Source: Escherichia coli
GTDB lineage: Bacteria > Pseudomonadota > Gammaproteobacteria > Enterobacterales > Enterobacteriaceae
Length of the DNA: 64,000 nt
Strand: one strand, 5' to 3'
NCBI RefSeq assembly: GCF_050920415.1
Contig: NZ_CP169309.1
Shown in pieces: positions 2,086-57,382 of this stretch. Position 1 is the stretch's first letter, and every line of letters starts with the position of its first letter. Position numbers and translations under genes: made by a program. The notes beneath the pieces are model-generated. The model ran no database searches. It was not told the DNA's origin and saw only the letters and a program-made list of their open reading frames with translations.

Positions 2086-4643
2086 CGTCCACCTCCGGAG
2101 AACAGGCCACCATCACGCATCTGTGTCTGAATTTCATCACGGGCACCCTTGCGGGCCATGTCATACACCGCCTTCAGAGCAGCCGGACCTATCTGCCCGT
2201 TCGTGCCGTCGTTGTTAATCACCACATGGTTATTCTGCTCAAACGTCCCGGACGCCTGCGACCGGCTGTCTGCCATGCTGCCCGGTGTACCGACATAACC
2301 GCCGGTGGCATAGCCGCGCATCAGCCGGTAAAGATTCCCCACGCCAATCCGGCTGGTTGCCTCCTTCGTGAAGACAAACTCACCACGGTGAACAATCCCC
2401 GCTGGCTCATATTTGCCGCCGGTTCCCGTAAATCCTCCGGTTGCAAAATGGAATTTCGCCGCAGCGGCCTGAATGGCTGTACCGCCTGACGCGGATGCGC
2501 CGCCACCAACAGCCCCGCCAATGGCGCTGCCGATACTCCCGACAATCCCCACCATTGCCTGCTTAAGCAGAATTTCTGTCATCATGGACAGCACGGAACG
2601 GGTGAAGCTGCGCCAGTTCTGCTCACTGCCGGTCAGCATCGCTGCCATATTCTGTGCAATACCATCAAAGGTCTGCGTGGCTGCACTTTTTACCTGCGAC
2701 ATACTGTCCGTGGCGCTCTCTTCCCACTCACTCCAGCCGGACTTCAGGCCTGCCATCCAGCTCCCGCGAAGCTGGTCTTCAGCCGCCCAGGTCTTTTTCT
2801 GCTCTGACATGACGTTATTCAGCGCCAGCGGATTATCGCCATACTGTTCCTTCAGGCGCTGTTCCGTGGCTTCCCGTTCTGCCGGCCGGTCAGTCAGCCC
2901 CCGGCTTTTCGCATCAATGGCGGCCCGTTTTGCCCGTTGCTGCTGTGCGAATTTATCCGCCTGCTGCGCCAGCGCGTTCAGGCGCTCCTGATACGTAACC
3001 TTGTCGCCAAGTGCAGCCAGCTGGCGTTTGTACTCCAGCGTCTCATCTTTATGCGCCAGCAGGGATTTCTCCTGTGCGGACAGCTGGCGACGTTGTGCCG
3101 CCTCCTCCAGTACCGCGAACTGACTTTCTGCCTTCCACAAATCCCGGCGCTGCTGGCTGATTTTCTCATTTGCTCCGGCATGCTTCTCCAGCGTCCGGAG
3201 TTCTGCCTGAAGCGTCAGCAGGGCAGCATGAGCACTGTCTTCCTGACGATCGCCCGCAGACACCTTCACGCCGGACTGTTTCGGCTTTTTCAGCGTCGCT
3301 TCATAATCCTTTTTCGCCGCCGCCATCAGCGTGTTGTAATCCGCCTGCAGGATTTTCCCGTCTTTCAGTGCCTTGTTCAGTTCTTCCTGACGGGCGGTAT
3401 ATTTCTCCAGCGGCGTCTGCAGCCGTTCGTAAGCCTTCTGCGCCTCTTCGGTATATTTCAGCCGTGACGCTTCGGTATCGCTCTGCTGCTGCGCATTTTT
3501 GTCCTGTTGAGTCTGCTGCTCAGCCTTCTTTCGGGCGGCTTCAAGCGCAAGACGGGCCTTTTCACGATCATCCCAGTAACGCGCCCGCGCTTCATCGTTA
3601 ACAAAATAATCATCCTTGCGCAGATTCCAGATGTCGTCTGCTTTCTTAAACGCAGCCTCTGCCTTAATCAGCATCTCCTGCGCGGTATCAGGACGACCAA
3701 TATCCAGCACCGCATCCCACATGGATTTGAAGGCCCGCGCAGTCCTGTCTGCCCAGGTCTCCAGCGTGCCCATGTTCTCTTTCAGGCGGCGGGTCTGGTC
3801 ATCAAACCCTTTCGTTGCGGCCTCGTTCGCCGCCTGCAATGCCCCGGCTTCATCGCCGGAACGCTGCAACTGAGCAACATACGCAATCTGCTCCGCCGTC
3901 ACGTTATGGAACTGGCGTGCCATCGCCGTCAGCCCCGACGTCGGGTCTGTGGTCAGCTTCCCGAAGGCTTCAGCGACCTTGTCCACCTCCACGCCGGATG
4001 CAGAGGAGAAACGCGCCACACTCTGGCTGATGGACGCAATCTGAGCCTCACCGCTTACCCCCGCCTTAACCAGTGCGCTGAGTGACTCGCTGGTCTGGTT
4101 AAACGTCAGCCCTGCCGCCTGCCCGGCTCTGGACAGGACCAGCATGCGATCTGCCGTCAGACCCGACTGATTGCCGGAAAGGACCAGCGTTTTGTTGAAA
4201 TCGGACAGGGTTGAGTTGCCCTGATACCAGGCATACGCCAGCGCACCGGTCGCCACCGCCAGCGAGGTGGCCCCCACCATCGGCAGGGTGATCGCACCGG
4301 CAAGCCCCCTGAACATGGGGATCATCCCGCCGAAGGAGTCCTTCACCTGCCCCCCCTGTTGCAGCAGGATCAGCCACGGACTTTGCCCGCCTGCAAGCTG
4401 CGTGGCCACGTCGGTGAACTGTGCAGGCAGCATACGCATGGCGGCTTTATACTGCCCGACGGAAATCCCCGCTTTCTGTGCAGCCAGCGCCTGTCGGCTC
4501 AGCGACTGTTCAACGACTGCCGCTGTTTTTTTCGCATCACTTTCCGTACCGGAAAAATGACGCCTGACTCTGGCCATCTGCTCGTCAAATCTGGCCGCAT
4601 CCAGACTTAAATCAACGACCAGATCGCCTACCGGTTCAGCCAT
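2082..4643 (-). CDS. H: tail tape measure protein (lambda gpH-like)
   Basis: Track ORF 853 aa MAEPVGDLVVDLSLDAARFDEQMARVRRHFSG...; Ala/Gln-rich coiled-coil body with a Gly-rich C-terminal region. Confidence 0.95.
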   Translation of the reverse strand: MAEPVGDLVVDLSLDAARFDEQMARVRRHFSGTESDAKKTAAVVEQSLSRQALAAQKAGISVGQYKAAMRMLPAQFTDVATQLAGGQSPWLILLQQGGQVKDSFGGMIPMFRGLAGAITLPMVGATSLAVATGALAYAWYQGNSTLSDFNKTLVLSGNQSGLTADRMLVLSRAGQAAGLTFNQTSESLSALVKAGVSGEAQIASISQSVARFSSASGVEVDKVAEAFGKLTTDPTSGLTAMARQFHNVTAEQIAYVAQLQRSGDEAGALQAANEAATKGFDDQTRRLKENMGTLETWADRTARAFKSMWDAVLDIGRPDTAQEMLIKAEAAFKKADDIWNLRKDDYFVNDEARARYWDDREKARLALEAARKKAEQQTQQDKNAQQQSDTEASRLKYTEEAQKAYERLQTPLEKYTARQEELNKALKDGKILQADYNTLMAAAKKDYEATLKKPKQSGVKVSAGDRQEDSAHAALLTLQAELRTLEKHAGANEKISQQRRDLWKAESQFAVLEEAAQRRQLSAQEKSLLAHKDETLEYKRQLAALGDKVTYQERLNALAQQADKFAQQQRAKRAAIDAKSRGLTDRPAEREATEQRLKEQYGDNPLALNNVMSEQKKTWAAEDQLRGSWMAGLKSGWSEWEESATDSMSQVKSAATQTFDGIAQNMAAMLTGSEQNWRSFTRSVLSMMTEILLKQAMVGIVGSIGSAIGGAVGGGASASGGTAIQAAAAKFHFATGGFTGTGGKYEPAGIVHRGEFVFTKEATSRIGVGNLYRLMRGYATGGYVGTPGSMADSRSQASGTFEQNNHVVINNDGTNGQIGPAALKAVYDMARKGARDEIQTQMRDGGLFSGGGR

Positions 4644-17716: not shown

Positions 17717-18210
17717 TGCTGACCCCACAAACAGATTTCACGCTCAATCTCACGACGAGTCATGAGACCTTTCCATTGCTTACCGCCAGCATATGTCCAG
17801 CGACGTAGCTGATCACATGCGCCTTTGATATCGCCCTGGTTTATTTTGCGAAGAAGCGTCGATGTTCTGAAATTGCCAGCACCCACGTTGTAAACGAATG
17901 AGTAAAGAGCGCCGCGCATTGTTTCCGGTATATCGACTTTGATGTACGGGTTAATTTGTCTGGCGACCGTGGCAAGGTCTTTATTCAGGAGGGCTTTGCA
18001 TTCTGCTTTGGTATACGTTTTACCGAGCATGATGTCTTTTCCTGTATGCCCGTGACATACAGTCCATACACCAACAATATCTTTGTATGGTATGTAGCTG
18101 ACACCTTCCAGACCATCGTTACCACTTGGGCCAGTGATTAACACTGATGCTATAGCAATTGCTCCGCCACCAATAGCAGCAGCAACGGCTTTTCGTAATG
18201 ATGGAGGCAT
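17713..18210 (-). CDS. R: SAR endolysin (phage-21 R / DLP12 RrrD-type lysozyme)
   Basis: Track ORF 165 aa [44 protein letters not shown]...; N-terminal Gly/Ala-rich signal-arrest-release helix followed by a T4-lysozyme-like catalytic region. Confidence 0.85.
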
Positions 18211-18425
18211 TATTCACCTCTCGCAGCCTTGCGCTTATCTTCTTTAATCTTGAAATAAAGGTTTGTCAGGTACGTCAGCAGGCCAAATACCAGGCTACCC
18301 AGCACACCTATTGCTGCCCACTGTGAGGGCGTGACTTTATCGAGCAGCTGTAAAAACCAGTAACCGGCACTACCTGCTGAGGTGCCATAGGCGACACCCG
18401 TTGTTAACTTATCCATGGATTTCAT
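18210..18425 (-). CDS. S: pinholin (phage-21 S21 / DLP12 EssD-type holin)
   Basis: Track ORF 71 aa [71 protein letters not shown]; two TM segments and a charged C-terminus. Confidence 0.8.
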
Positions 18426-18532
18426 AACCCCACCTCGCAGACAAAGCGGGTGTAAATTGAGGGAATACTACGAAACGTAACAGACTCGGAGTCAGTGAAT
18501 AACTCAGGTATTGGGTTATCAGCTAATATCGA

Positions 18533-18570
18533 GACTCAAAAAATGGAAAAACCCGCTCGACGGCGGGTTT
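18533..18570 (-). terminator. putative rho-independent terminator on the late-gene strand, upstream of S
   Basis: Minus strand reads AAACCCGCCGTCGAGCGGGTTT followed by TTCCATTTTTTGAG (GC-rich stem plus T-run). Confidence 0.45.
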
Positions 18571-18998
18571 AAGCTGTGTGACGAAGTAACCACTCTTAAC
18601 AGCATAACCAATTTTTTACGTACGTAAACCACTAAATGATATTTGCGAGAATGCTACCGAGTATTGAAAACACCACTACAAATACATAAGCAAATCTCAA
18701 CAAATAACCAACAAATAATTTCCAGTGTTATTTTTAGCCGATTTAAATTGAACCTTCAAATTATAGAGCACTTATAAATAACAGCCGTTAATATAAATTG
18801 GCTAATAGATTTATTTTTATTCAGCCAAGAGCTATAAATAGGATTCGATAGAAAAAAGTTCAGATAAAAATAGAGATCTACTTCACAAATCAAACGAGAA
18901 ACCAAAACTTACATCTTGAAATAATCACATTGATTAGATGAATATTTATCGCGCAGTGACATCATTTTTTAATAATAGTTCAAAAAAAAGGGCTCACG

Positions 18999-20096
18999 AT
19001 GAAAAAATTAACAGTGGCAATTTCTGCTGTAGCTGCATCAGTACTGATGGCGATGTCTGCTCAGGCAGCTGAAATTTATAATAAAGACAGTAACAAGCTG
19101 GATCTGTACGGGAAAGTTAATGCTAAGCACTACTTCTCCTCTAATGATGCAGATGATGGTGATACTACTTATGCCCGTCTTGGCTTCAAAGGTGAAACCC
19201 AAATCAACGATCAGCTGACTGGTTTCGGTCAGTGGGAATATGAATTCAAAGGCAACCGCGCTGAATCTCAAGGTTCCTCCAAAGACAAAACCCGTCTTGC
19301 ATTTGCAGGCCTGAAATTCGGTGACTACGGCTCAATCGATTACGGCCGTAACTACGGTGTAGCATACGACATCGGTGCGTGGACTGACGTTCTGCCAGAA
19401 TTCGGTGGCGATACCTGGACCCAAACAGATGTGTTCATGACTGGTCGTACCACTGGTGTTGCAACCTATCGTAACAACGACTTCTTTGGTCTGGTTGATG
19501 GTCTGAACTTTGCTGCTCAGTACCAAGGCAAAAACGATCGTAGCGATTTCGATAACTACACTGAAGGTAACGGTGATGGCTTCGGTTTCTCTGCTACCTA
19601 TGAATACGAAGGATTCGGTATCGGTGCAACTTATGCGAAATCTGATCGTACCGACACTCAAGTTAATGCAGGGAAAGTTCTTCCTGAAGTATTTGCTTCC
19701 GGTAAAAATGCAGAAGTTTGGGCCGCAGGTCTGAAATATGACGCTAACAACATTTACCTGGCCACTACCTATTCTGAAACCCAGAATATGACTGTATTTG
19801 CTGATCACTTCGTTGCTAATAAAGCTCAAAACTTCGAAGCTGTTGCACAATATCAGTTCGATTTCGGTCTGCGTCCGTCCGTTGCTTACCTGCAATCTAA
19901 AGGTAAGGATCTTGGAGTATGGGGCGATCAGGACTTAGTCAAATATGTTGATGTAGGTGCAACCTATTACTTCAACAAAAATATGTCTACTTTCGTTGAT
20001 TACAAAATCAACCTGCTTGACAAAAATGACTTCACTAAAGCACTCGGTGTAAGCACTGATGACATCGTTGCTGTAGGTCTGGTTTACCAGTTCTAA
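18999..20096 (+). CDS. nmpC: outer membrane porin (NmpC/Lc-type general porin), apparently intact
   Basis: Track ORF 365 aa [46 protein letters not shown]...VGLVYQF; signal peptide and C-terminal aromatic residue typical of OmpC-family porins; lies between Q and S on the opposite strand as in DLP12/PA-2. Confidence 0.9.
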
Positions 20097-20104
20097 TCTG
20101 ATTA

Positions 20105-20146
20105 CGAAAAAGATATGTTGCGGGAGGCTTTGCCTCCCCAACATAT
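20105..20146 (-). terminator. putative late terminator tR' (minus strand), also usable as convergent terminator for nmpC
   Basis: Palindrome ATATGTTGGGGAGGC-AAAG-CCTCCCGCAACATAT followed on the minus strand by CTTTTTCG; ~100 nt downstream of a promoter-like sequence after Q. Confidence 0.45.
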
Positions 20147-20233
20147 AAGTGGCTCCCTCAAGCCACTTCCTTTAGGAGCACAACCTTGCTTCTAACTATA
20201 TAAACCTTCTGTTATATATTACCCTTTATTTTT

Positions 20234-20259
20234 GGGGGCGTTGCAACGCCCCATTTTTA
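20234..20259 (+). terminator. putative rho-independent terminator on the plus strand downstream of nmpC
   Basis: GGGGCGTTGCAACGCCCC followed by ATTTTTAA. Confidence 0.5.
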
Positions 20260-20285
20260 ATAACTTTTAGTAAACAACTGGCATA

Positions 20286-20669
20286 TTAATTAGAGTTATT
20301 AACAACGATATCCATCTCTAACCGGATATCTAATGCCATTAACATCCCTTCAATTATACCCTCAGCCTTCTGTAACCTTTTCCCGATATAACCATCAGAG
20401 CAGCAATGCTTACCTGCCAGTGACATGAATGTCATACCGACTACATAATAATCTACTAATAAATCGTGCAAATCGCTGTTGTTCTTTTTCAGACGGGCCA
20501 TGCACCCGCAAATGATCATCGCGTCATCGTCACAACATTGCGGGCGAGATTTTACTTTTGAAGTAATTAATCCCTTAAAACCGGCGGCAATGGACGACCA
20601 GGTCACATCTTCATGATTATTAGCCGCCCACGCTCCCCAACGCTCAAGAACCATCTGAATATCACGCAT
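20286..20669 (-). CDS. Q: late-gene antiterminator Q (phage-82 / DLP12 QuuD type)
   Basis: Track ORF 20286-20684; contains [34 protein letters not shown]...[18 protein letters not shown]... (127 aa from this Met); Cys cluster consistent with a zinc-binding Q. Confidence 0.8.
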
Positions 20670-20751
20670 CAACTTACTCCACAAAAATCAGACCAGAACG
20701 CCAATTACAAGCAAAAATCAACAAAATAGTATTAGTTGATTGTTATCTCTG

Positions 20752-20892
20752 ACTTCATACTCCTGCTCCTGTCAGGGTTTTGGCGTAATTCTTCAGTATC
20801 CGGTAATCGGTCAAAACAGAACCAGGAAAACGATATAAGCGCAGGCGCACCCAGCGGCGGCGAAGACGCTCTGCCATATAAGACTCAAACAT
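20752..20892 (-). CDS. ylcG: small DUF3927-like protein (DLP12 YlcG-like)
   Basis: Manual minus-strand translation [45 protein letters not shown]; start overlaps the rusA stop; below track size cutoff. Confidence 0.5.
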
Positions 20893-21254
20893 CATTCATT
20901 CCCCATTTCGGTGATGGTCAGTTCCAGCCTCCCACCTTTGGTAACAGGCATCTTCACAACGCGGTAATCAACGACCTGAGCATCATCCAGCCAGAAACCT
21001 GCTTTGGTGAGTGCGTCAAAAGCGGCCTTTTGCAGATTATCCAGGTCACGGCGACGGCGATCCGGCATGTGGCACTCAATACGGATTTTCACTGGCATAG
21101 CCAGGCCGATATCCAGCATTGCGTTTTTAATGATTCGGGTGACGTTATCGCGGTATGCCTGCCCTTCTGCGCTGATGTGTGTGCGCCCGCGATTATGGCG
21201 GTAATAGCGGTTATTGCTCGGAGGCCAGGGTAGTGTGATGTGGTAAGTATTCAC
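20892..21254 (-). CDS. rusA: Holliday junction resolvase RusA
   Basis: Track ORF 20892-21317; 120 aa from the GTG at 21252-21254 ([37 protein letters not shown]...); start overlaps the ybcO stop. Confidence 0.85.
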
Positions 21255-21541
21255 GCCTTGATTACCCCCTCTTTCAGCCAGATAACCTGCGTTCTCGCCA
21301 TACCTTCCAGCGCGCATTCTTTTGCGTACTCAGCATCGACAAAATGCGTGCGGCGGTCGATTTCGTCGTGACAGGCAGAACAGGCAATGGTGGCAATAAG
21401 GTCTGGCGGTTTAATACCGGTGCCGCACAATCCAGCCAGCCGGATATGTGCCAGTACAGACGTTTCAGGGTTGCCATTACATACGCCAGTGATTCTTACC
21501 TGGCATTCCCGACCACGCGCTGCTTTTCTCAAATCAGCCAT
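21251..21541 (-). CDS. ybcO: DUF1364-family protein (DLP12 YbcO-like, Cys-rich putative nuclease)
   Basis: Track ORF 21251-21580; start chosen at [35 protein letters not shown]... Confidence 0.7.
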
Positions 21542-21704
21542 GATTCCTCCTTGCTGCCAGTCGCAACCATTTTTTATCAACCAGGCTAGCGGTATATCCG
21601 AGCAGTGTTGGTATTTCGGATGGCTTCAGCTCAGGCTTACGCTTACGACGATTTGGTACTCTGTAGATGTGTCCGTTCATGACACGAATAAGCGGTGTAG
21701 CCAT
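21534..21704 (-). CDS. ninE: NinE-like small protein
   Basis: Manual translation [56 protein letters not shown]; ATG overlaps the ybcN stop (TAATG); below track size cutoff. Confidence 0.6.
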   Translation of the reverse strand: MATPLIRVMNGHIYRVPNRRKRKPELKPSEIPTLLGYTASLVDKKWLRLAARRNHG

Positions 21705-22159
21705 TACGCCTCCTGCTTGTCGCGCAGCAGCTGGAACTCGCAGCTCTGCGGAATAGTCAGGTGGCAGCCAATATTCATCGCCCAGGCTTCAACCTTACAC
21801 AGGAAGACATACATCTCTCCGGTATCAAGATCGGAAGTATGGCGTAACGACTGGATAGTAGTGATTTCGCCGGTTACGACATCAACCAGGTCCTTGGTTT
21901 CATAACCGAGGTATGTGTGTTTGAGAGCATCTTTTACCCAAGCTGGAGTGGCGAACGTTTTACCCCTGCTGATGAGGTATTCACTGATTTCGCTGTACCA
22001 CATGTGGCTGAGTGCATTCTGGGAAAGACTGCGTTTCTCACGCCACGGTTTAAGCACCATGCGAAAGCATTTGCCTTCCTCCAGATAAGGCTGGATCTGC
22101 TGGCCGATAGCGGTGAAGTTACCACGATGCAATTTGATGCCGTCTTGTGGGAGGTTCAC
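21704..22159 (-). CDS. ybcN: NinB-position protein (DLP12 YbcN-like)
   Basis: Track ORF 151 aa, GTG start preceded by [47 protein letters not shown]... Confidence 0.75.
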
Positions 22160-22193
22160 GCTTCACCTCCGCAGAGGTCAAACGCTGGATGCA

Positions 22194-22278
22194 AAAAATC
22201 GCAGGTGCATCTCTGCATCTGTGAAGGGAGAAGAGAGTTTGGATTGTATGTGCGCATAAACGTCCCCGTTTAGCGCAG
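22194..22278. repeat. ~85-bp direct repeat, copy A (partner at 24128-24211, ~93% identical)
   Basis: AAAAATCGCAGGTGCATCTCTGCATCTGTGAAGGGAGAAGAGAGTTTGGATTGTATGTGCGCATAAACGTCCCCGTTTAGCGCA; contains imperfect hairpin GCGCATAAACG-TCCCC-GTTTAGCGC. Confidence 0.75.
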
Positions 22279-22353
22279 AAGTCACCGGAGTTGTTCAAGC
22301 TCCAATGGCATGATTATGGCTGGTTGATTATTGGAAATCAAATGTGCTGAAAA

Positions 22354-22863
22354 TTAGTCTGCCAAGTCTTCCTCAGTCGCAACTGGGTAATTCCAAATAT
22401 CAAAAAAAGCTATAGCCTCCTGCCATTTGCTCCATAAGTTATCAAGTACTTGTGTAGGTTCCGTACTTTTAAAAACAGAATCAGCCGCATCACCGTTATG
22501 AACTTCCTCGTACAGTTCCATTATTAGCAGATTAACAAAGTACTGTTTCAACATTAATGCCTGATTACCTTCTTTCTGCTGGCTATCCTGCTTGATGAGC
22601 TCCATCGCCCGTACTAGGCACCTGATGATATCCGCTGCATCATTAACGCTCCATTCAGATCCGCGCTTATCTTTAGCTGATGAATTGGCTCTCTCAGCGC
22701 AAGCCTTTAAAGACTCATAAAGGTAAACTCTATTTTGTAGCTGCAGCGCTTTTTTTGACGTGCACCAACTTGCAAGCGCCGACCCCGCTGCGGCTAATGT
22801 GCCAAACGCAGAAATGCCTGCTGCTATTGCACTTAAGTCGGCACTGTCAAAGTTCCACATCAT
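22354..22863 (-). CDS. hypothetical protein with one N-terminal hydrophobic helix; no family recognised
   Basis: Track ORF 169 aa MMWNFDSADLSAIAAGISAFGTLAAAGSALASWCTSKK...; AT-rich upstream region; lies inside the repeat-bracketed cassette. Confidence 0.6.
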   Translation of the reverse strand: MMWNFDSADLSAIAAGISAFGTLAAAGSALASWCTSKKALQLQNRVYLYESLKACAERANSSAKDKRGSEWSVNDAADIIRCLVRAMELIKQDSQQKEGNQALMLKQYFVNLLIMELYEEVHNGDAADSVFKSTEPTQVLDNLWSKWQEAIAFFDIWNYPVATEEDLAD

Positions 22864-23036
22864 CGTTACACCTTATATAAACACCCCTCAGTAATATCCA
22901 ATAAGGTATGTGAACAATCAATATAATTTATATCCGTATCGGCACATAGCGATTTTAATGCTACTGATAATGGTATCTTTTAGATTATATCGTCCAGTTC
23001 CAGTACCCGTATTTTATGAAATGGACTCGCACATTA

Positions 23037-23078
23037 CCAAAAAAAATGCCAGCACTTCCGTCATCGCAGAATGCTGGC
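23037..23078 (-). terminator. putative rho-independent terminator downstream of the Bro-N-like gene
   Basis: Minus strand: GCCAGCA...TGCTGGC stem followed by ATTTTTTTTGG. Confidence 0.45.
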
Positions 23079-23098
23079 AGTATTTCTAACTAGTGACT

Positions 23099-23707
23099 TT
23101 ATTGCAACAGATTCTGACGGAAATATGGTAACACACGACTCCACTTATCATCCTGCCACGGTTGGAATTTTACATGCGCCGTTTCTCTGGCAAGGATTTC
23201 TCGCGCCCTGTTGAGTATCCGAGGATATTCTTGTTCGATTGAAGTGAATCTACCTGCTTCGCGATGCTCTGCGACCTGAAGAAGGGGCGTAACGTTCTGG
23301 CAGGCGGTTAACATCGTATCACTTGCTCGCCATAACCAGGCGAGTGTGCAAAGTTCGTTATCAGTGAATTGTTTTGTGATTGGGGATTGTTGAACTTCTC
23401 GATCGAGAATATCCAGAACCCAGCGGCGGAATTCTTTGGCCACAGGAGTACGAGCAAACATGGCGATCAAATGGGCTCCGCGAAGGCTAAATACTCGAGA
23501 CTCCTGCATTCCACGAGGGGTGGTCACTTTGACCACCCTTGTCATCATATCTGTGAATTCATCTGAGTGCCGAGAGTAAATGCGCTGAACTGCTTTATCG
23601 TCCGCATATTCCAGTGCTAAACCAACTTCAGTGGCAGTAAGCCAAATTCTGTTATTGTGGCAAATCGGGGTAAACGTCGTTTTGTGGAATGCTAATTGAG
23701 TAGTCAT
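23099..23707 (-). CDS. Bro-N / antirepressor-like domain protein
   Basis: Track ORF 202 aa MTTQLAFHKTTFTPICHNNRIWLTATEVGLALEYADDKAVQRIYSRHSDEFTD...; N-terminal region resembles Bro-N/KilA-N phage regulatory domains (pattern recognition only). Confidence 0.55.
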   Translation of the reverse strand: MTTQLAFHKTTFTPICHNNRIWLTATEVGLALEYADDKAVQRIYSRHSDEFTDMMTRVVKVTTPRGMQESRVFSLRGAHLIAMFARTPVAKEFRRWVLDILDREVQQSPITKQFTDNELCTLAWLWRASDTMLTACQNVTPLLQVAEHREAGRFTSIEQEYPRILNRAREILARETAHVKFQPWQDDKWSRVLPYFRQNLLQ

Positions 23708-23970
23708 AGTATCACCTCATCAGGTTAACCATCACCACCAACGACGCCAATCGACTGGTGGTGAACTGTGTAAGGTTGGCGTAACCGGCTACTCAAACCC
23801 GGCGCTTCCGAAGAAGCCCTCACACAGCCCACCATAATTTGGGCATAGCCGTGCTTAGCGCACAAAAAAACCGCTTAACGCGGTATGCGTTGAGTAGTAT
23901 CCCGGGACGCCAATCCCGTGTGCCGATTTTGCGGCAACGCACAGAATATAGCGCCGGATAAATCATGTCG

Positions 23971-24060
23971 TCAACCCCAGTAAATGGACACCATGATGAT
24001 CACAGCCATAGCTGCTACAACAGTTACAACTACCTCAGGCCAAAACATAACGATTTCCAT
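23971..24060 (-). CDS. candidate 29-aa hydrophobic micro-protein
   Basis: Manual translation MEIVMFWPEVVVTVVAAMAVIIMVSIYWG*, preceded by AGGTGA about 5 nt upstream; single predicted TM helix; below track size cutoff. Confidence 0.3.
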   Translation of the reverse strand: MEIVMFWPEVVVTVVAAMAVIIMVSIYWG

Positions 24061-24127
24061 ATCACCTTTAGCCGCCAGACGAATAGAGACTCCCAATTCT
24101 GGCTGTCGAAGTAAAACACCGAATGTA

Positions 24128-24211
24128 AAAAATCGTAGGTGCATTTCTGCATCTGTGAATGGAGATGAGAGTTTGGATTGTGTGTGCGCATAAACGTCCC
24201 CGTTTAGCGCA
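24128..24211. repeat. ~85-bp direct repeat, copy B (partner at 22194-22278)
   Basis: AAAAATCGTAGGTGCATTTCTGCATCTGTGAATGGAGATGAGAGTTTGGATTGTGTGTGCGCATAAACGTCCCCGTTTAGCGCA; about 6 mismatches versus copy A. Confidence 0.75.
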
Positions 24212-24519
24212 ACCCCACCACCGGGTGTTCAGGCCGACAGTAACTATATTATTCCCTACTGATTTTTGAAAATCAAAGGTCTTTATACGTCACACGAGAG
24301 CAAATATTTCCGAAGAAGAAACCTTTCGCCTTGAAAGGATAAAGAGTTCATTTCATAAATTGAAATATTCAATAAGAATATTGCAAAAAATGAAATTATT
24401 TACTAGCGAGTCTATCTAACTGATAATTATGAAGATTGTAAGCGGTAGCAATCACCCGCATACACATTGAACAGGATTTAATACAAAACGTCTTAAATTG
24501 TCCGTAAGGAATAGCACGA

Positions 24520-26022
24520 ATGACTCAAACTCCTCTATTACTTGCAATCATATTTTTATTGGTTGTTCTTGTTCTTTATATAGCTGCAATCAAACGCATC
24601 AAAAAAATACAATTAGAATTAAGTGATAGCAATCAAAAAAATGAAGAATACAAATCTCGCTTTGCAGATTATTTTAATGTAGAAGAAGAATGTAAGAAGC
24701 TTATTGAGAAAACAGAGCAAGAATGCTCCATAATAAAAGAAGAATCCCTAAAAGTAAAAGAAAATGCCAATAATGAACTAACAAACACCATTGAAAAAAT
24801 GGATGGTATCAATAAACAAATCCAAGAGCTAAGAAGAACTTATAAAGAGAAGAAAGAAATATATGATAAACTAGTAAGGCAAATTTCTATTTATTCAGAA
24901 GATGTTGAGCTAGCCGAACTAGGATTTTACGAACCTCATTTTAATTTTGAAGATTCAGAGCAATTTAAAAACAAAATAAAATCCATCAGGGATGAACAGA
25001 AATTAATGCTGCGGGATAAAACCCACTCTGGCGCAGTATATTGTACAACCCAATGGACTGTTGAAGGCTCTCGAGCAGAGGGTAAAAAAATGACAGACAG
25101 AAATATCAGGCTAACTACTAGAGCATTTAATAATGAATGTGATGCTGCAATTAGCAATTGCACGTGGAAAAACATCACTAAAATGGAAGAACGCATCACA
25201 AAGGCATTTGAGGCCATAAATAAACTAAACGAGCAAAATCACATATATATAAACACTAAATACCTCAATAAAAAACTTGAGGAATTGTGGCTTACCCATG
25301 AATATCGTGAGCAAAAACAGAAAGAAAAAGAAGAACAGGCAGAAATAAGGGCACAAATGAGAGAGGAGGAGCGTGCACAACGAGAAATAGAAAAGGCCAT
25401 GCAAGACGCAGAGGCAGAAGAGCGCCGTTATAAAAAAGCAATTGAAGCTGCAAGAAAGGAAATGGAAAAAGTTACTGGTGACATGAAGCAGCGCCTCGAA
25501 AATCGCATTGCCGAACTAGAACAGAGTTTGTCGCAGGCTGAATCAAAGCATCAAAGAGCATTATCCATGGCACAACAAACCAAACAAGGTCATGTTTATA
25601 TTATTTCGAACATAGGTTCTTTTGGGGAGAATGTTTATAAAATAGGCATGACACGACGTCTTGATCCGCAAGACCGTGTAAATGAGCTCGGTGATGCATC
25701 TGTTCCTTTTATTTTTGATGTACATGCCATGATTTATTCGGAGGACGCTCCATCATTAGAAAAAAAACTACATGATGTCTTCGATAAAAAGAGAGTCAAT
25801 CTTGTAAATCGTAGAAAAGAGTTTTTCTATGTTACTCTGGATGAGATCAAAGAAGCTGTTAAAAAACACTCTGATTCAGAAATTGAATTTATTGAGACAG
25901 CAGTCGCAAAAGACTTTAATGAGTCATTGGCTATTCGTAATCATGAAAATAAAAAAAGTGACAACAGCAACTCATCAATTATACCTGAGCGAAAAACCCC
26001 AGAGTTTGCAGATGCAATTTAA
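24520..26022 (+). CDS. membrane-anchored coiled-coil protein with C-terminal GIY-YIG/T5orf172-like domain (DUF4041-like architecture); candidate defence moron
   Basis: Track ORF 500 aa: N-terminal TM helix (LLLAIIFLLVVLVLYIAAI), ~300 residues Lys/Glu-rich coiled coil, then GHVYIISNIGSFGENVYKIGMTRRLDPQDRVNELG...EKKLHDVF...RKEFFYV; RBS AAGGAA; strongly AT-rich; opposite strand to flanking phage genes. Confidence 0.8.
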   Translation: MTQTPLLLAIIFLLVVLVLYIAAIKRIKKIQLELSDSNQKNEEYKSRFADYFNVEEECKKLIEKTEQECSIIKEESLKVKENANNELTNTIEKMDGINKQIQELRRTYKEKKEIYDKLVRQISIYSEDVELAELGFYEPHFNFEDSEQFKNKIKSIRDEQKLMLRDKTHSGAVYCTTQWTVEGSRAEGKKMTDRNIRLTTRAFNNECDAAISNCTWKNITKMEERITKAFEAINKLNEQNHIYINTKYLNKKLEELWLTHEYREQKQKEKEEQAEIRAQMREEERAQREIEKAMQDAEAEERRYKKAIEAARKEMEKVTGDMKQRLENRIAELEQSLSQAESKHQRALSMAQQTKQGHVYIISNIGSFGENVYKIGMTRRLDPQDRVNELGDASVPFIFDVHAMIYSEDAPSLEKKLHDVFDKKRVNLVNRRKEFFYVTLDEIKEAVKKHSDSEIEFIETAVAKDFNESLAIRNHENKKSDNSNSSIIPERKTPEFADAI

Positions 26023-26270
26023 TTAATTTGTAGTAGCAATAAAGCAGGCATCGTTGAGAATATTTTGTCAGCGATGCTTACTTCTCTAACAAAAACGGTG
26101 ATTACCAACGAACTAACGGACTTCAGGTAATCATAAGACAAATGGAACGACTCTCCGGTGATTAGATCCCTGCAATAACAGTAATTTTCTACTAACTGAA
26201 AAATCTTTAACTGCCGCTCCTATTTCTAAGCTGACTGCTAGATTACATGGTGTGTTACCGATGAAAACCG

Positions 26271-26573
26271 TCACAGCAAGTTTAAGTTCATATCTCCATA
26301 CACTGCCAACACTCGTTTCATCGCGGCACTCTGGCGACACTCCTTGAAAATCAGATTCGTGCTCACCTTTCCTTCCCGTTCTTCCCTGGTAGCGAACCGG
26401 TAATACACCGTTCGCCAGACCTTACCATCAACGACCAAGATTCCTGCCCGTGCCATTTTAGCCGCAGCCTGATTTATACTGGTTACTGTTGCGCCTGTTA
26501 CCGCAGCAACGTCCTGCGCACAGAAGCTCTTATGCGTCCCCAGGTAATGAATAATTGCCTCTTTGCCCGTCAT
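26271..26573 (-). CDS. ren: Ren protein (lambda Ren-like)
   Basis: Track ORF 100 aa MTGKEAIIHYLGTHKSFCAQDVAAVTGATVTSINQAAAKMARAGILVVDGKVW... Confidence 0.85.
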   Translation of the reverse strand: MTGKEAIIHYLGTHKSFCAQDVAAVTGATVTSINQAAAKMARAGILVVDGKVWRTVYYRFATREEREGKVSTNLIFKECRQSAAMKRVLAVYGDMNLNLL

Positions 26574-27271
26574 ACAGTTGCTCCTTTCAGTCCGAACTTC
26601 GCTTTGATTTCTGCGATCTTCGCCAGAGCCTGTGCACGATTTAGAGGTCTACCGCCCATGACAGGAAGTTGTTTTACTGGTTCAGGTATCGCCTCACCAC
26701 GGTTAATTCGCGCGGTCATACAAGTCAGTTCATCGGCAGCCTTGCGCCGTAATTCCGCATCAGTAAGCGCATTGGCCCGCATGTTCTGATACAGGTTGGT
26801 AACCAGCCAGTAGTGCGCGTTTGATTTCCACGGATAAGACTCTGCATCTGGATACAGGCCACGTTTCCGGCAATACTCGTAAACCATATCAACCAGCTCG
26901 CTGGCGTTTGGCAGCCCGGCGGTAACGGATGCTTCTTCCCGGCACCAGGCAACAAACTGCCCGGGTGATGGCAGGAATGGTCGATTCTGCCGACGGGCTA
27001 CGCGCATTCCTGCGTCAACCTGTTCCATCGTGGTGATCCCGTTTTCCCGGAAAGCCAGAACCCACTGGCGGCGGATTTCGTTCAGTTCGTTCTGGTCCCG
27101 GTTAGCCAGGCTCGCCGGGAAAGTTGCCAGTAACTGGCTGAACACACCATTGATGATCTGCGCTACCTGTTGTACCTGCGGCTTTTCGTCGTACTGTTCC
27201 GGCATGTTGTTGGCGATCCGGCGCATCTGCTCACGGTCAAAGTTAACCATCTGTGCGGCGATGTTTTTCAT
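26570..27271 (-). CDS. P: replication protein P (DnaB helicase loader, lambda P-like)
   Basis: Track ORF 233 aa MKNIAAQMVNFDREQMRRIANNMPEQYDEKPQVQQVAQIINGVF... Confidence 0.9.
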   Translation of the reverse strand: MKNIAAQMVNFDREQMRRIANNMPEQYDEKPQVQQVAQIINGVFSQLLATFPASLANRDQNELNEIRRQWVLAFRENGITTMEQVDAGMRVARRQNRPFLPSPGQFVAWCREEASVTAGLPNASELVDMVYEYCRKRGLYPDAESYPWKSNAHYWLVTNLYQNMRANALTDAELRRKAADELTCMTARINRGEAIPEPVKQLPVMGGRPLNRAQALAKIAEIKAKFGLKGATV

Positions 27272-28287
27272 AAATCCACCCCGTAAATCCAGTCAGTGTT
27301 TGTCAGGTCGAGTTTTGATTTTCCGGCTATCACGCCAGCCTGTTGCTTGTTACGGTTGATTTCGAGTTGGGTCCACTTGTCGCGGAGTTTGGCCGGACTT
27401 AGCACGTTACCGGACCAGAAGTTGTCCTGGCATGCCCAGCGGAACAGCACGCACATGTCGCGGTGGTTACGGCCGTCACGTTCACGCATCAGGCGGATAT
27501 CGTTAGCCCACCCTGCAAAATTCGGTTTTCTGGCTGATGGCGCGATGGTCTTCACCATGTCAAACATCCACTCTGCGGCGGTCAGGTCTTCTGCTGTCCC
27601 CCACCTGCTGCCGCTCTGAATTGCAGCATCTGGTTTCTCCACAGGAAGATCGTTTTCTGGTTGGTCAGAGGATTCGCCAGAATTCTCGGACGAAAAAGGT
27701 TTTATATTGTCTTTTGTTAGTTTGTCTTTTGTGTTTACCTGATTCGGGTAAGTGCCTTTACCTGATTTGGGTAAACTTTTCTTACCTGATTCAGGTAAAT
27801 TTACCTCTTTCAGGTAAACTTTATTTTTCTTACCTGATTCGGGTAATGTTGACCATTCACTGACCACATTATTAATGCCGATATTCCGCCCGCTCTGAAT
27901 AAAAATCCCACGCTTTACCAGAACACTTTTTGCAGCAGAACACTTGTGCGGCAATATCCCGGTCAACTCGGAAAGTTGCTCGTTGCTCACCCAATCCAGT
28001 TTTTTATTAAAGCCATATGTTTTGCGCATGACAGCCAGGAAGACCAGAAGCTGGTGCTGTGTTAATCCGGCCAGCATCACAGCTTCCAGCAACTCATTTG
28101 CAATGCGCGTATAACCATCATCGAGATCTGCCACGCGCGGCTCCTTTTGTGCCGCATCCGGCACTGGAAAATTGAATATCTCAGCAGTGTTTGCCATAAT
28201 TCCTCCCGCAATGAGTGTGTTACGATTTGCACCTGAAAGTCGGTTCTGTTCCCGCAGACCGACTTTCGCCATTTCTGAACCTGTCAT
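27268..28287 (-). CDS. O: replication initiator O (lambdoid O-like; origin iterons inside the gene)
   Basis: Track ORF 339 aa (start uncertain; internal Met at MANTAEIFNF...); C-terminal part resembles the lambda O P-interaction domain; iterons at 27735-27846 lie within the coding sequence. Confidence 0.8.
   Translation of the reverse strand: MTGSEMAKVGLREQNRLSGANRNTLIAGGIMANTAEIFNFPVPDAAQKEPRVADLDDGYTRIANELLEAVMLAGLTQHQLLVFLAVMRKTYGFNKKLDWVSNEQLSELTGILPHKCSAAKSVLVKRGIFIQSGRNIGINNVVSEWSTLPESGKKNKVYLKEVNLPESGKKSLPKSGKGTYPNQVNTKDKLTKDNIKPFSSENSGESSDQPENDLPVEKPDAAIQSGSRWGTAEDLTAAEWMFDMVKTIAPSARKPNFAGWANDIRLMRERDGRNHRDMCVLFRWACQDNFWSGNVLSPAKLRDKWTQLEINRNKQQAGVIAGKSKLDLTNTDWIYGVDL
27698..27846. 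repeat. ori: replication origin: five palindromic iterons (TACCTGATTCGGGTA-like) plus adjacent AT-rich segment
   Basis: Copies at ~27736-27750, 27759-27773, 27783-27797, 27802-27816, 27831-27845; AT-rich stretch 27698-27734 on the downstream side relative to O. Confidence 0.65.
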
Positions 28288-28823
28288 ATTGCCCCCAGCA
28301 TGGTGGTCACCATCGCCATTAATGGACCAGCCAGATCCGGGTCCACACGAAACATCGACACAATACCTTCACTCATTTCCTTCAGTTTCTGGTGGCGTGG
28401 TGCGTTGAGAATGACAGCCTGTTTTGCCTCACTGAGTTCCTTTTCCATTTCAGCCAACCGAGTCATGAAGCTATCCTGCTCAACCAGGTAACCGCGATAT
28501 TCCAGCGGTAGTACCGCCAGAATTGCCGGGGTCAGTTCACGCACGTTATTTCGGTATTTTTCAGAATCGAATTTGTTATCGAGGAAGCGGAACAGCTTCT
28601 GGCGTGCACGGCTGACATCATCAGGGAAATCGATGGTGCCGTCGCCCTGCTCCCGATACTCATTCACAATGAGTGCGGCAACGACATCCTGATTATCTAC
28701 AGCCGACCAGGCGCGGACGGCATCACGGATTTTTTCGTGGCCTGGAGCTTGTTTTGTTTGAGAACGATTTATCACCGCAGTCGGAATAAATCCGCTAGTC
28801 TGTTGGTATGTAAGTGGTTGCAT
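28284..28823 (-). CDS. YdaT-family protein (occupies the cII position)
   Basis: Track ORF 179 aa MQPLTYQQTSGFIPTAVINRSQ...ALIVNEYREQGDGTIDFP...RELTPAILAVLPLEYRGYL; resembles Rac YdaT by recollection. Confidence 0.5.
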   Translation of the reverse strand: MQPLTYQQTSGFIPTAVINRSQTKQAPGHEKIRDAVRAWSAVDNQDVVAALIVNEYREQGDGTIDFPDDVSRARQKLFRFLDNKFDSEKYRNNVRELTPAILAVLPLEYRGYLVEQDSFMTRLAEMEKELSEAKQAVILNAPRHQKLKEMSEGIVSMFRVDPDLAGPLMAMVTTMLGAI

Positions 28824-28892
28824 AATTGACTCCTTTAGTTTGAATTGACTGTTAAGTTGATTGCTTATTGTTAAAGAGCGTGAAATGGAAAT

Positions 28893-29123
28893 TTAAGCTG
28901 CGTTCTTTTCGGTGTGTGGAAACAACTTCGGAAGATCCGGGCGAATCTGGTATGCCTTCACAACTCCACCAGTAGCCGTAACAATGCTGCCGACATGTTC
29001 AGGGGATACCTTTGCTTTGTTGTGAAGCCACTTATAGACGGCCTGCTGTGAAACTTCGCAGGCATCGCCTAGTTTCTTTTGTGAACCAACGATATTGATC
29101 GCTGTTTTGATTGCTGGGTTCAT
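28893..29123 (-). CDS. cro: Cro/YdaS-type HTH regulator (cro analogue)
   Basis: Track ORF 76 aa MNPAIKTAINIVGSQKKLGDACEVSQQAVYKWLHNKAKVSPEHVGSIVTATGG...; divergent from the repressor gene. Confidence 0.65.
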   Translation of the reverse strand: MNPAIKTAINIVGSQKKLGDACEVSQQAVYKWLHNKAKVSPEHVGSIVTATGGVVKAYQIRPDLPKLFPHTEKNAA

Positions 29124-29227
29124 AACAACCTCCGTGGTTAATCCGAATCAAGATTAAAACTATGGTTGTTTTTAGTCAACAACCATTTTCGTTTGATGAA
29201 ATAAAACCTTGGTTGTACATTTGATCT
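29124..29227. promoter_or_regulatory. immunity-region operator/promoter region between divergent cro-like and cI genes
   Basis: Inverted repeats with half-site TGGTTGT/ACAACCA (e.g. ATGGTTGTTTTTAGTCAACAACCAT); same half-site recurs in the putative OL/PL region. Confidence 0.5.
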
Positions 29228-29917
29228 ATGAAAACAACACTCTCAGAAAGACTTAAAGAAGCCAGATTAGCGCGAGGCCTTACACAAAAGGCGCTTGGGG
29301 ATTTGGTCGGGGTTAGCCAAGCTGCTATTCAGAAAATCGAAACAGGGAAAGCTAACCAAACAACTAAAATCGTGGAGATCGCGAACGCTTTGGGTGTGCG
29401 CGCAGAATGGTTATCTTCTGGCGTTGGAAATATGTCAGACAGTACAGTGCAACCAATACAATCAACTGTCAGCCATTCCAAATACTTCAAAATTGACGTT
29501 CTTGATATAGAAGTCAGTGCCGGGCCAGGTGTAATCAACCGTGAGTTTGTAGAAGTTCTACGCTCGGTTGAGTACTCGTTTGACGATGCTCGTCACATGT
29601 TCGATGGCAGGAAGGCGGAAAATATCCGCATCATTAACGTGCGAGGTGACAGCATGTCAGGGACGATCGAACCAGGTGACCTGCTGTTCGTTGATATCAC
29701 TGTTAAATCTTTCGACGGTGATGGCATCTATGCGTTTCTGTACGACGACACTGCCCATGTAAAACGTCTTCAAATGATGAAGGATAAGCTGCTGGTTATC
29801 TCTGATAACAAGAGCTACTCGCCGTGGGACCCGATCGAGAAAGACGAGATGAACCGGGTGTTCATATTCGGTAAGGTCATTGGAAGCATGCCGCAGACGT
29901 ACAGGAAGCATGGTTAA
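29228..29917 (+). CDS. cI: CI-type repressor (XRE-family HTH + S24 LexA-like autopeptidase domain)
   Basis: Track ORF 229 aa MKTTLSERLKEARLARGLTQKALGDLVGVSQAAIQKIETGK...GDSMSGTIEPGDLLFVD...KRL; HTH and Ser/Lys-dyad motifs. Confidence 0.85.
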   Translation: MKTTLSERLKEARLARGLTQKALGDLVGVSQAAIQKIETGKANQTTKIVEIANALGVRAEWLSSGVGNMSDSTVQPIQSTVSHSKYFKIDVLDIEVSAGPGVINREFVEVLRSVEYSFDDARHMFDGRKAENIRIINVRGDSMSGTIEPGDLLFVDITVKSFDGDGIYAFLYDDTAHVKRLQMMKDKLLVISDNKSYSPWDPIEKDEMNRVFIFGKVIGSMPQTYRKHG

Positions 29918-30146
29918 TTTATCTACGACTTAAGGGAGCGAAGGTTAAGGTTTATACCACTCGGATTAGATATTGCACTAAATTCTCTATAAGAACGCCA
30001 AATCTGTTTGCATATTTCAGTAAATATTCTCGTTGTTAGCTGAGATTTGTTGCTACTGTCAGCAAAATGTCCCCCTATCTCGTAGCGGTTTTTATTTCGA
30101 ATCATTATGTTAAGATGTTTCTGATTATAATGAATGGAAACATAAA

Positions 30147-35694: not shown

Positions 35695-35730
35695 CTGATT
35701 GAATTGTAATGGCGCGCCCTGCAGGATTCG
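35695..35730. other. prophage-host junction (att site overlapping the 3' end of argU); exact core not determinable without the distal copy
   Basis: int stop at 35694 and tRNA 3' end (CCA) at 35710; the second att copy is off-window. Confidence 0.5.
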
Positions 35731-35786
35731 AACCTGCGGCCCACGACTTAGAAGGTCGTTGCTCTATCCAACTGAGCTAAGGGCGC
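35710..35786 (-). tRNA. argU: tRNA-Arg (anticodon UCU)
   Basis: Reverse complement reads GCGCCCTTAGCTCAGTTGGATAGAGCAACGACCTTCTAAGTCGTGGGCCGCAGGTTCGAATCCTGCAGGGCGCGCCA; D- and T-arm consensus, anticodon loop CUUCUAA, 3' CCA. Confidence 0.9.
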
Positions 35787-49007: not shown

Positions 49008-49205
49008 TGCCGGATGCAGCGTGAACACCTTATCCGACCTACTAATCCGGTACCCATTGTAGGCCTGATAAGACGCGTCAAGCGTCGCATCAGGCATGGT
49101 GCGCCGATTACCGGATGCGGCGTGAACGCCTTATCCGACTACCAATCCGGTACCCATTGTAGGCCTGATAAGACGCGTCAAGCGTCGCATCAGGCATGGT
49201 GCGCC
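49008..49205. repeat. REP/BIME element: two tandem ~95-bp units of paired REP palindromes
   Basis: GCCGGATGCAGCGTGAACACCTTATCCGACCTAC...TGTAGGCCTGATAAGACGCGTCAAGCGTCGCATCAGGCA repeated twice with few mismatches, between convergent purK and ybcF. Confidence 0.75.
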
Positions 49206-57298: not shown

Positions 57299-57340
57299 GT
57301 CATACCACACGCCTGATTATTTTTAGCTATGTTGGATTTT

Positions 57341-57367
57341 GCCACGGTTTATACCGTGGCTTTTTTT
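57341..57367 (+). terminator. putative rho-independent terminator after allE
   Basis: GCCACGGTTTATACCGTGGC followed by TTTTTTT. Confidence 0.6.
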
Positions 57368-57382
57368 GTAGTCAATTCAGGT

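Follow-up and report, generated by a model that had tools for sequence, protein, structure and literature searches.

An antirepressor-family gene of an Escherichia coli lambdoid prophage behind IsrK-like and C4-like RNAs

The minus strand of a 64-kb stretch of Escherichia coli DNA (contig NZ_CP169309.1; the whole stretch is referred to here as the window) carries, at 23099-23707, a short gene that raises two questions: what kind of protein does it encode, and with which of its neighbours does it form a unit? The original prediction, made from the letters alone, had proposed a phage regulatory protein of the antirepressor type with an N-terminal Bro-N/KilA-N domain and an unassigned C-terminal half, and had suggested its pairing with a nearby membrane protein and a micro-open reading frame (micro-ORF) as a unit. 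Antirepressors switch on temperate phages without the classical RecA-dependent cleavage of the repressor, and can wake several prophages together. We report here that the gene, which we call ant, is an antirepressor-family prophage gene, and that it probably closes a self-contained operon whose expression is controlled by RNA-RNA pairing like that in the immI region of phage P1.

The ant gene and its RNA leader

The ant ORF runs from an ATG at 23707 to a TAA at 23099 and encodes 202 amino acids, within which both peptide stretches quoted in the original prediction are found. The Pfam search placed a Bro-N domain (PF02498) at residues 17-100 (E 7.6e-10), so this part of the predicted N-terminal assignment held; KilA-N did not match ant, even at E<=10. 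The C-terminal half turned out to be assignable, since residues 110-180 match P22_AR_C (PF10548), the C-terminal domain of the phage P22 antirepressor, with an E value of 6.2e-17 and over 71 of the 73 model positions. Ten PHROG families annotated as 'anti-repressor' also matched ant (the best being phrog_245, 2.8e-56), and a search of 5.8 billion proteins returned 4195 relatives, which carry the database names 'P22AR C-terminal domain-containing protein' or 'prophage antirepressor-like protein'; the first of these is also the RefSeq name of the ant protein. Among the relatives listed, PF02498 was present in 120 of 120 and PF10548 in all but one, a truncated relative. The Pfam domains, the PHROG families and the relatives together bear out the proposal of a phage regulatory protein of the antirepressor type. 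No match to ant was found in NCBIfam or PADLOC. The AlphaFold2 model of Ant (pLDDT 74.7) consists of an N-terminal domain with a beta-hairpin plus helix, a C-terminal domain of three helices and a disordered tail at residues 181-202. A sequence search of the PDB with Ant returned nothing below E 0.5, and a Foldseek comparison of the model with the PDB gave no match below E 0.19, the weak matches being SKI/Dachshund-like only.

The operon occupies 23974-23039 of the minus strand (0.93 kb), with ant as its sole long ORF, and its elements follow in the order sigma-70 promoter, IsrK-like small RNA (sRNA) with its own terminator, C4-like antisense RNA, ant and strong terminator. The PisrK-like promoter (23945-23974, minus strand) consists of TTGACG, an 18-nt spacer and TATATT, matching at 10 of 12 positions; it was the top promoter-like site in 22000-24550, and the transcription start predicted from it is the first base of the isrK match. 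Both of its hexamers were invariant in 14 of 14 aligned leaders, including that of the Salmonella prophage Gifsy-1. The IsrK-like RNA (73 nt; 23864-23936, minus strand) scored 58.7 bits with the Rfam isrK model, vs a gathering score of 50. At its end the sequence predicts an intrinsic terminator (stem 23884-23870, then a U tract, minus strand). Overlapping the isrK match is one to the Rfam model c4-a1b1 (23951-23899, minus strand), which at 39.6 bits lies below the gathering score of 46.7.

The C4-like antisense RNA (86 nt; 23754-23839, minus strand) lies upstream of ant on the same strand and scored 74.8 bits, vs a gathering score of 45. In Rfam, the C4 model shares a clan with c4-a1b1. Between C4 and the ant ATG there are 46 nt, and the sole ORF there is an orf45-like frame of 36 codons (23725-23835, minus strand) that overlaps C4. 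The frame begins within the C4 stem, at an invariant AUG of its 5' strand, and ends 17 nt short of the ant ATG. This upstream ORF is open in four leader types, in different frames, and is broken in one locus (L032; L numbers denote individual loci throughout); the sequence of its peptide is not conserved. The translation-initiation region of ant (23696-23750, minus strand) holds the Shine-Dalgarno sequence GAGGTG (23718-23713) together with two sites, a2 and b2, that are described below. At the other end of the operon, the hairpin of an intrinsic terminator (23039-23078, minus strand; GCCAGCA...TGCTGGC, then A and eight T) begins 20 nt past the ant stop codon.

We examined the structure of this leader in an alignment of 14 distinct leaders, Gifsy-1 among them. 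The structure tested, three hairpins in the IsrK region plus C4, was paired in 97.8% of cells, vs 36-45% in controls in which the partners were slid along the alignment. Eleven pairs were altered on both sides, 8 of them in the long stem and the first inner hairpin of C4. The first IsrK hairpin stem and the C4 stems were remodelled with compensation, the a1 hairpin was invariant, and the IsrK terminator varied by leader type, with no column-for-column alignment. In the predicted free leaders of the window, L041, L047 and Gifsy-1, 11-15 of the 19 nt over the ant Shine-Dalgarno and AUG are paired.

Pairing sites and a proposed mechanism

C4 exposes two segments, a' (ACGCCAA, 23782-23776), in the single-stranded stretch before the closing stem, and b' (UUGAGUAG, 23796-23789), in the loop of the second inner hairpin. 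We searched for the longest Watson-Crick complement of each, using as positive control the GenBank record of P1, which annotates a1, b1, c4, a2, b2, icd and ant1/ant2. The search recovered the annotated P1 sites a1, a2 and b2 exactly, and b1 over 7 of its 8 nt. In the window, a' is complementary over 7 bp to two UUGGCGU sites, a1 (23913-23907), within the IsrK-like RNA, and a2 (23750-23744), at -43 from the ant AUG. Similarly, b' is complementary over 8 bp to two copies of CUACUCAA, b1 (23897-23890), also within the IsrK-like RNA, and b2 (23703-23696), which is written into ant codons 2-4 (+4 to +11). All these sites are on the minus strand, and a2 and b2 flank the ant ribosome-binding site on either side. 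The 10-mer GATTGGCGTC occurs twice in the window, at a1 and a2 only, vs a chance expectation of 0.15; of 2000 trials with a shuffled window loop, 8 reached 8 bp on both sides. The UUGGCG sites had also been considered as 'b', a correspondence ruled out by the annotated P1 record, in which they correspond to 'a'.

Across the enteric leader set the a triplet is constant, and b', b1 and b2 change together in five classes. In the window class b' is UUGAGUAG and b1/b2 are CUACUCAA, with b2 at +4. The L041/L054 class has (U)GAUUACC as b' and GGUAAUC(A) as b1/b2, with b2 at -10, and the L047 class UCGUUUUGA and UCAAAACGA, with b2 at -19. In Gifsy-1 the loop CGGUGA(U) faces (A)UCACCG, with b2 again at -19, and in P1 the loop (U)CACUAAC faces GUUAGUG(A), with b2 at -18. 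In all five classes b2 is found within -19 to +11 of the first translated start codon. Cognate b matches extend over 6-9 bp, non-cognate ones mostly over 4-6 bp. The RNA stems and the b'/b1/b2 sites change compensatorily, which implies selection on pairing, and the three-way covariation of b', b1 and b2 is the strongest evidence for functional pairing. Sites that change together by class also provide a ready-made set for compensatory-mutation experiments.

Two cross-matches between non-cognate members were seen as well. In the L047 class, the b' loop has an 8-bp complement in codons 8-10 of the window ant (CAAAACGA, 23686-23678 region), and in the L025 class it has a 9-bp complement in codons 3-6 of Gifsy-1 anrP (L086). 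These could be relics or real cross-talk sites. If the modules form one RNA family, as proposed below, the RNAs made by a prophage could determine how readily its co-residents are induced, because the a-site is shared and some b-sites cross-match.

The closest known relative of this arrangement is the isrK-orf45-anrP locus of Gifsy-1 in Salmonella, which was studied experimentally by Hershko-Shalev et al. 2016 (PMC4825925). There, anrP is driven by the isrK promoter and the long transcript is translationally silent; IsrK supplied in trans raises anrP translation more than 100-fold, via the upstream ORF, and AnrP induces the prophage (PMC4825925). The pairing that we call a1-a' was proven in the same study by compensatory mutants, G28/G31 with C162/C159 (PMC4825925). 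The window shares with Gifsy-1 the promoter hexamers, the order of IsrK with its terminator, C4-like RNA (STnc1160/orf45 in Gifsy-1) and antirepressor gene, and the identical a1, a' and a2 sequences. Its upstream ORF begins at the same invariant AUG as orf45 (PMC4825925), and the first four residues of the antirepressor, MTTQ, are common to both. In contrast, AnrP is an ORF6N protein of which only the first ~50 residues align weakly to Ant (37% identity, E 0.003); the b specificity is CGGUGA(U) there and UUGAGUAG here; b2 adjoins the Shine-Dalgarno there and covers ant codons 2-4 here; and the upstream ORF has 45 codons and overlaps the start there, while here its 36 codons end 17 nt short of ant. 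In Gifsy-1 the antirepressor gene is followed by isrJ, which scores 100 bits there and gave no match at E<=1 in 18000-30000 of the window. The module also sits elsewhere, between ren and ybcN and not downstream of Q.

With the immI region of P1 and P7 (c4-icd-ant), the locus shares a C4 RNA of the same Rfam family and fold, in which two exposed segments each have one site upstream and one downstream of c4, and downstream sites that bracket the ribosome-binding site of the first translated gene, the output being an antirepressor. It differs in having no icd gene, b2 being carried by ant itself; in the a' and b' sequences, which are not those of P1; in its upstream sites, which here lie in a separately terminated sRNA; and in that no C1-type operator is evident. 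Ant is not similar to P1 Ant1/Ant2 (best BLASTP E 11), and the host element here is a lambdoid phage with a LexA-like CI. The P22 immI region (mnt, arc, sar, ant) shares the C-terminal domain, that of Ant being the Pfam domain of the P22 antirepressor; unlike P22, the window has no sar, arc or mnt, and the N-terminal 75 residues and the leader are of the C4 type. In the immunity system of P4 (CI RNA, seqA, seqC), too, a processed RNA from an untranslated leader pairs with sites on both sides of itself; the output there is transcription termination of the replication genes, not antirepressor translation. The locus is thus the counterpart, in a lambdoid phage of E. coli, of the switch known from P1 immI and from isrK-orf45-anrP of Gifsy-1, here coupled to another family of antirepressor.

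Starting from these observed elements, we infer how the RNAs may be processed, in which direction they would regulate and what Ant would act on. One promoter would give rise to the 73-nt IsrK-like RNA, most transcripts ending at its terminator, and read-through would continue into the 86-nt C4-like RNA and then ant. In a lysogen, C4, either within the long transcript or processed from it, would pair with a2 and b2 and bracket the ribosome-binding site, leaving ant untranslated. The IsrK-like RNA, with its exact a1/b1 copies, would, once accumulated, compete for C4 or for the C4 segment of the long transcript; such a decoy would account for the action of IsrK as an activator in Gifsy-1. Ribosome loading on ant would follow, probably aided by translation of the 36-codon upstream ORF through C4, and the open frame in four leader types is consistent with ribosome passage opening the leader, as for orf45. 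Ant may then bind and inactivate a CI-type repressor, which would lead to RecA-independent induction; a repressor as its target is suggested by its family. The candidates would be the repressor of a co-resident prophage or the resident CI (29228-29917, plus strand), in which, at the motif level, we read a helix-turn-helix (HTH) domain and, after it, a C-terminal region with a GDSM serine motif like that of S24/LexA proteins.

We propose more tentatively, with doubt slightly outweighing belief, that the lambdoid isrK-C4-ant modules of E. coli and Salmonella may constitute one RNA 'immunity' family, in which a fixed a-site would be combined with at least four interchangeable b specificities, C4, as in P1, would directly block the start of the antirepressor, with the short IsrK RNA as a decoy that titrates C4. 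This would offer a simple unifying reading of P1 c4 and Gifsy-1 IsrK, which are not linked in the published accounts of either that we found. The Rfam C4 and isrK models have been reported to detect relatives of P4 CI and seqA in the 'Bro zones' of satellites (PMC10111431; PMC4825925), an association already noted (PMC10111431). The Gifsy-1 study does not mention downstream a2 and b2 sites (PMC4825925). Neither the covarying b triplets nor the decoy role of IsrK was found stated in the published accounts that we consulted; both are what we infer from the comparison. The advance is incremental: a mechanism already described is extended to another gene family and to another type of host phage.

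Several observations weigh against control of ant by pairing of the immI type, or against the role that we assign to Ant. The c4-a1b1 match is under its gathering score; there is no icd-like gene, and b2 lies inside the coding sequence and not on the Shine-Dalgarno, unlike in P1. Constrained folds gave no single consistent switch across leader types. Ant alleles are uncoupled from the resident CI allele: we compared the N-terminal class of Ant with the resident CI type and saw no coupling, each of the four multi-locus C4-type classes occurring with three CI types (types A and B differ in the HTH domain only). DNA binding is also possible for Bro-N domains. The published Gifsy-1 model invokes alternative folds and coupling to the upstream ORF, without a2/b2 sites (PMC4825925), and over-expression of the C4-equivalent RNA in Gifsy-1 gave no relief of IsrK toxicity (PMC4825925).

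A three-way RNA switch was also considered, in which CACCACC would pair with the C4 5' strand or with GGUGGUG, and GGUGGUG would lie in the a2 hairpin or sequester the ant AUG. We do not claim it, as the folds obtained with the C4 5' strand blocked differed among the four leader types. The AUG-sequestering hairpin itself was paired in 83.5% across leaders, vs 30-53% in slid controls.

Distribution of the module and other readings of Ant

The comparison set consisted of 79 viral contigs encoding relatives of the ant protein. Where the ant allele was at least 75% identical, isrK and C4 were present in every representative, above their gathering scores and at the same positions. The leader was present in 307 of 5426 complete E. 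coli genomes (~6%), its carriers including O157:H7, O26:H11 and O111 strains, in which it is 88% identical. In 40 of 40 records listed there was no annotated feature beneath the RNA leader, only the ant start being annotated. The conserved partners of ant are the IsrK-like and C4-like RNAs upstream, and not the neighbouring proteins; the same RNA order recurs upstream of all ant alleles with 75% identity or more. One leader family precedes unrelated antirepressors, namely the ORF6N protein AnrP in Gifsy-1, Ant1/Ant2 in P1 and the Bro-N plus P22_AR_C protein here. Two tandem isrK-C4-ant modules (303-1143 and 2772-3591) were found on a single viral contig (L039), and these differ in b'/b1/b2 specificity and in the N-terminal half of Ant.

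The converse arrangement, one antirepressor gene behind different controls, was seen in sister alleles of ant (<=74% identity) that occupy the same prophage position (L058, 2340-3654; also L057, L062, L064-L072, L081 and L004). Compared with ant, sister alleles were 90-95% identical over residues 76-202 and only 31-53% over residues 1-75. They carry a P22-type control made of Mnt-like and Arc-like genes and a sar-like antisense RNA, the sar-like matches scoring 30-41 bits, under the Rfam gathering score of 43. As read from these alignments, two antisense-RNA control systems are swapped on one antirepressor gene, with the mosaic joint near residue 75.

These controls bear on a different reading of the protein, that Ant is a DNA-binding transcription regulator, a repressor or activator working via Bro-N, and not a protein-binding antirepressor. 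A Bro-network protein of the Vibrio satellite PLE is a repressor, and Bro-network proteins have been called 'DNA-interactive' (PMC10111431); the weak matches of the Ant N-terminal model are to winged-helix-like SKI/Dachshund DNA-binding folds (Foldseek E >=0.19). However, these fold matches are not significant, the C-terminal domain is common to the P22 antirepressor, the closest PHROG families are all antirepressors, and the gene lies behind three kinds of control that are not known outside antirepressor genes (C4/IsrK in the window; sar, accompanied by arc and mnt, in the sister alleles). We therefore consider a DNA-binding regulator unlikely.

A still less probable reading, to which we give little credence, is that the cassette is a decaying remnant, its RNAs and ant being conserved only through the youth of the sequence and Ant having no target in this phage. 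In E. coli MLI023K1 (L003, NZ_CP116913.1, 8172-10201), a 100%-identical cassette, together with the defence gene PD-Lambda-1, lies beside a truncated ren; beyond ren come TraR/DksA, an Ea22-like pseudogene and torI, whereas O, P and cI are absent within 4 kb, so the module persists there in a rearranged or defective prophage. The lack of replication and immunity genes around this copy would fit a remnant, as would the uncoupling of Ant and CI alleles. Against this, the 2.2-kb stretch around ant is 100% identical not only to many E. coli chromosomes but also to the lambdoid Escherichia phage PhiR26_1, which was deposited as a complete phage genome with K-12 MG1655 as listed host. In addition, the ant ORF is unbroken in alleles as divergent as 58% identity, compensatory change is seen in the RNA stems and in the b'/b1/b2 sites, and the leader recurs in E. 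coli genomes at the frequency given above. An antirepressor operon under immI-type pairing remains our preferred reading of the locus.

The cassette and its neighbouring genes

Along the minus strand, ant is preceded by cro, cII, O, P and ren and followed by ybcN, ninE, ybcO, rusA, ylcG and Q. Two direct repeats of 104 nt, 89% identical to each other, bracket the cassette: a left one at 24108-24211 and a right one at 22174-22277, the latter being orf33 proper, with translational overlap with ybcN. They are boundary features, outside the ant operon, and correspond to the start of the 'orf33' segment that precedes orf151/ybcN in phage 82. The cassette thus appears to have been inserted into the nin region by recombination at a linker sequence that is repeated there. 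Upstream of each repeat there is a promoter-like site with a shared TTGATT -35 hexamer (24276-24248 and 22341-22313), the second of which coincides with a putative promoter annotated in the phage 82 record.

The membrane protein of the original prediction is encoded at 22354-22863 (minus strand) and has 169 amino acids and an Ala/Gly-rich hydrophobic N-terminus. The gene sits past the ant terminator, with its own Shine-Dalgarno and promoter-like site. It co-occurs only with the 100%-identical ant allele and one 68% allele (L058/L059), and is missing from the 94-96%, 74-78% and <=64% alleles. Its family comprises 14 clusters in the 5.8 billion proteins, and the protein had no match in Pfam, NCBIfam or PADLOC. 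Diverged homologues are found in lambdoid prophages of several genera, always directly ahead of ninB/ybcN-type genes (ninB/DUF1367) and without a Bro-N neighbour; the gene may be an orphan moron in a fixed slot. Past the ant stop codon the alleles are no longer homologous, and the 13 aligned loci show seven different sequences there. In strain Z852, the one O157:H7 locus fetched (L087, 6001-7982), ant is followed by a HEPN-domain gene and a partner ORF and there is no 169-aa gene. The slot after ant is, by these alignments, a variable cargo site.

On the other side, homology between loci reaches to ~5 nt before the -35 hexamer, and what precedes is either the micro-ORF or directly ren. The micro-ORF (23971-24060, minus strand) has 29 codons, encodes a hydrophobic peptide (MEIVMFWPEVVVTVVAAMAVIIMVSIYWG) behind a good Shine-Dalgarno, and matches phrog_4612; its TGA stop shares bases with the -35 hexamer of the promoter of the ant operon. 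It had no match in NCBIfam or PADLOC. Its relatives keep a core of 29-31 aa with two alternative hydrophobic tails, and the in-frame extensions upstream vary or break, which suggests, from the sequences, a real small membrane peptide. It is missing where ren abuts the promoter and from all distant alleles, though several such loci keep the leader and ant.

The proposed pairing of ant with these two genes did not hold up, as both come and go across relatives, homology breaks at the ant stop and the co-occurrence comparison of the three cassette genes showed no conserved linkage of ant with either. A functional unit of the three, for example a defence or anti-defence cassette, is accordingly the least credible of the readings considered: all three genes do lie between the two repeats, in a variable region that also holds PD-Lambda-1, and the 169-aa gene also follows the second ant allele (68% identity; L058/L059) and, in PhiR5_1, the 'Rha protein' gene with the same sar-like match, but the 169-aa gene is missing from most ant alleles, its homologues in other genera keep their site upstream of ninB/ybcN without a Bro-N neighbour, a strong terminator parts it from ant, the sequences after ant are seven in 13 loci, the micro-ORF lies upstream of the ant promoter and is dispensed with in several loci that keep leader and ant, and PADLOC matched 0 of the 3 proteins.

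The defence gene PD-Lambda-1 (24520-26022, plus strand; 500 aa) lies between ren and the ant cassette and was matched by PADLOC over its full length (E 1.9e-198). Its protein, DUF4041 in RefSeq, has, in the translation read by eye, a hydrophobic N-terminus and a long charged centre rich in Glu and Lys. Some carriers of the identical ant allele have PD-Lambda-1 and others lack it.

Elsewhere in the window, a gene for a porin of 365 aa (18999-20096, plus strand; OmpD/porin in matching records) is located between Q and the lysis genes, a gene of a kind typical of lysogenic conversion. Rfam also matched naRNA4/CssrE (49062-49140, minus strand; 73 bits), STnc480 (57305-57371, minus strand; 85.5 bits) and a tRNA (35713-35786, minus strand; 72 bits), which may mark the prophage end.

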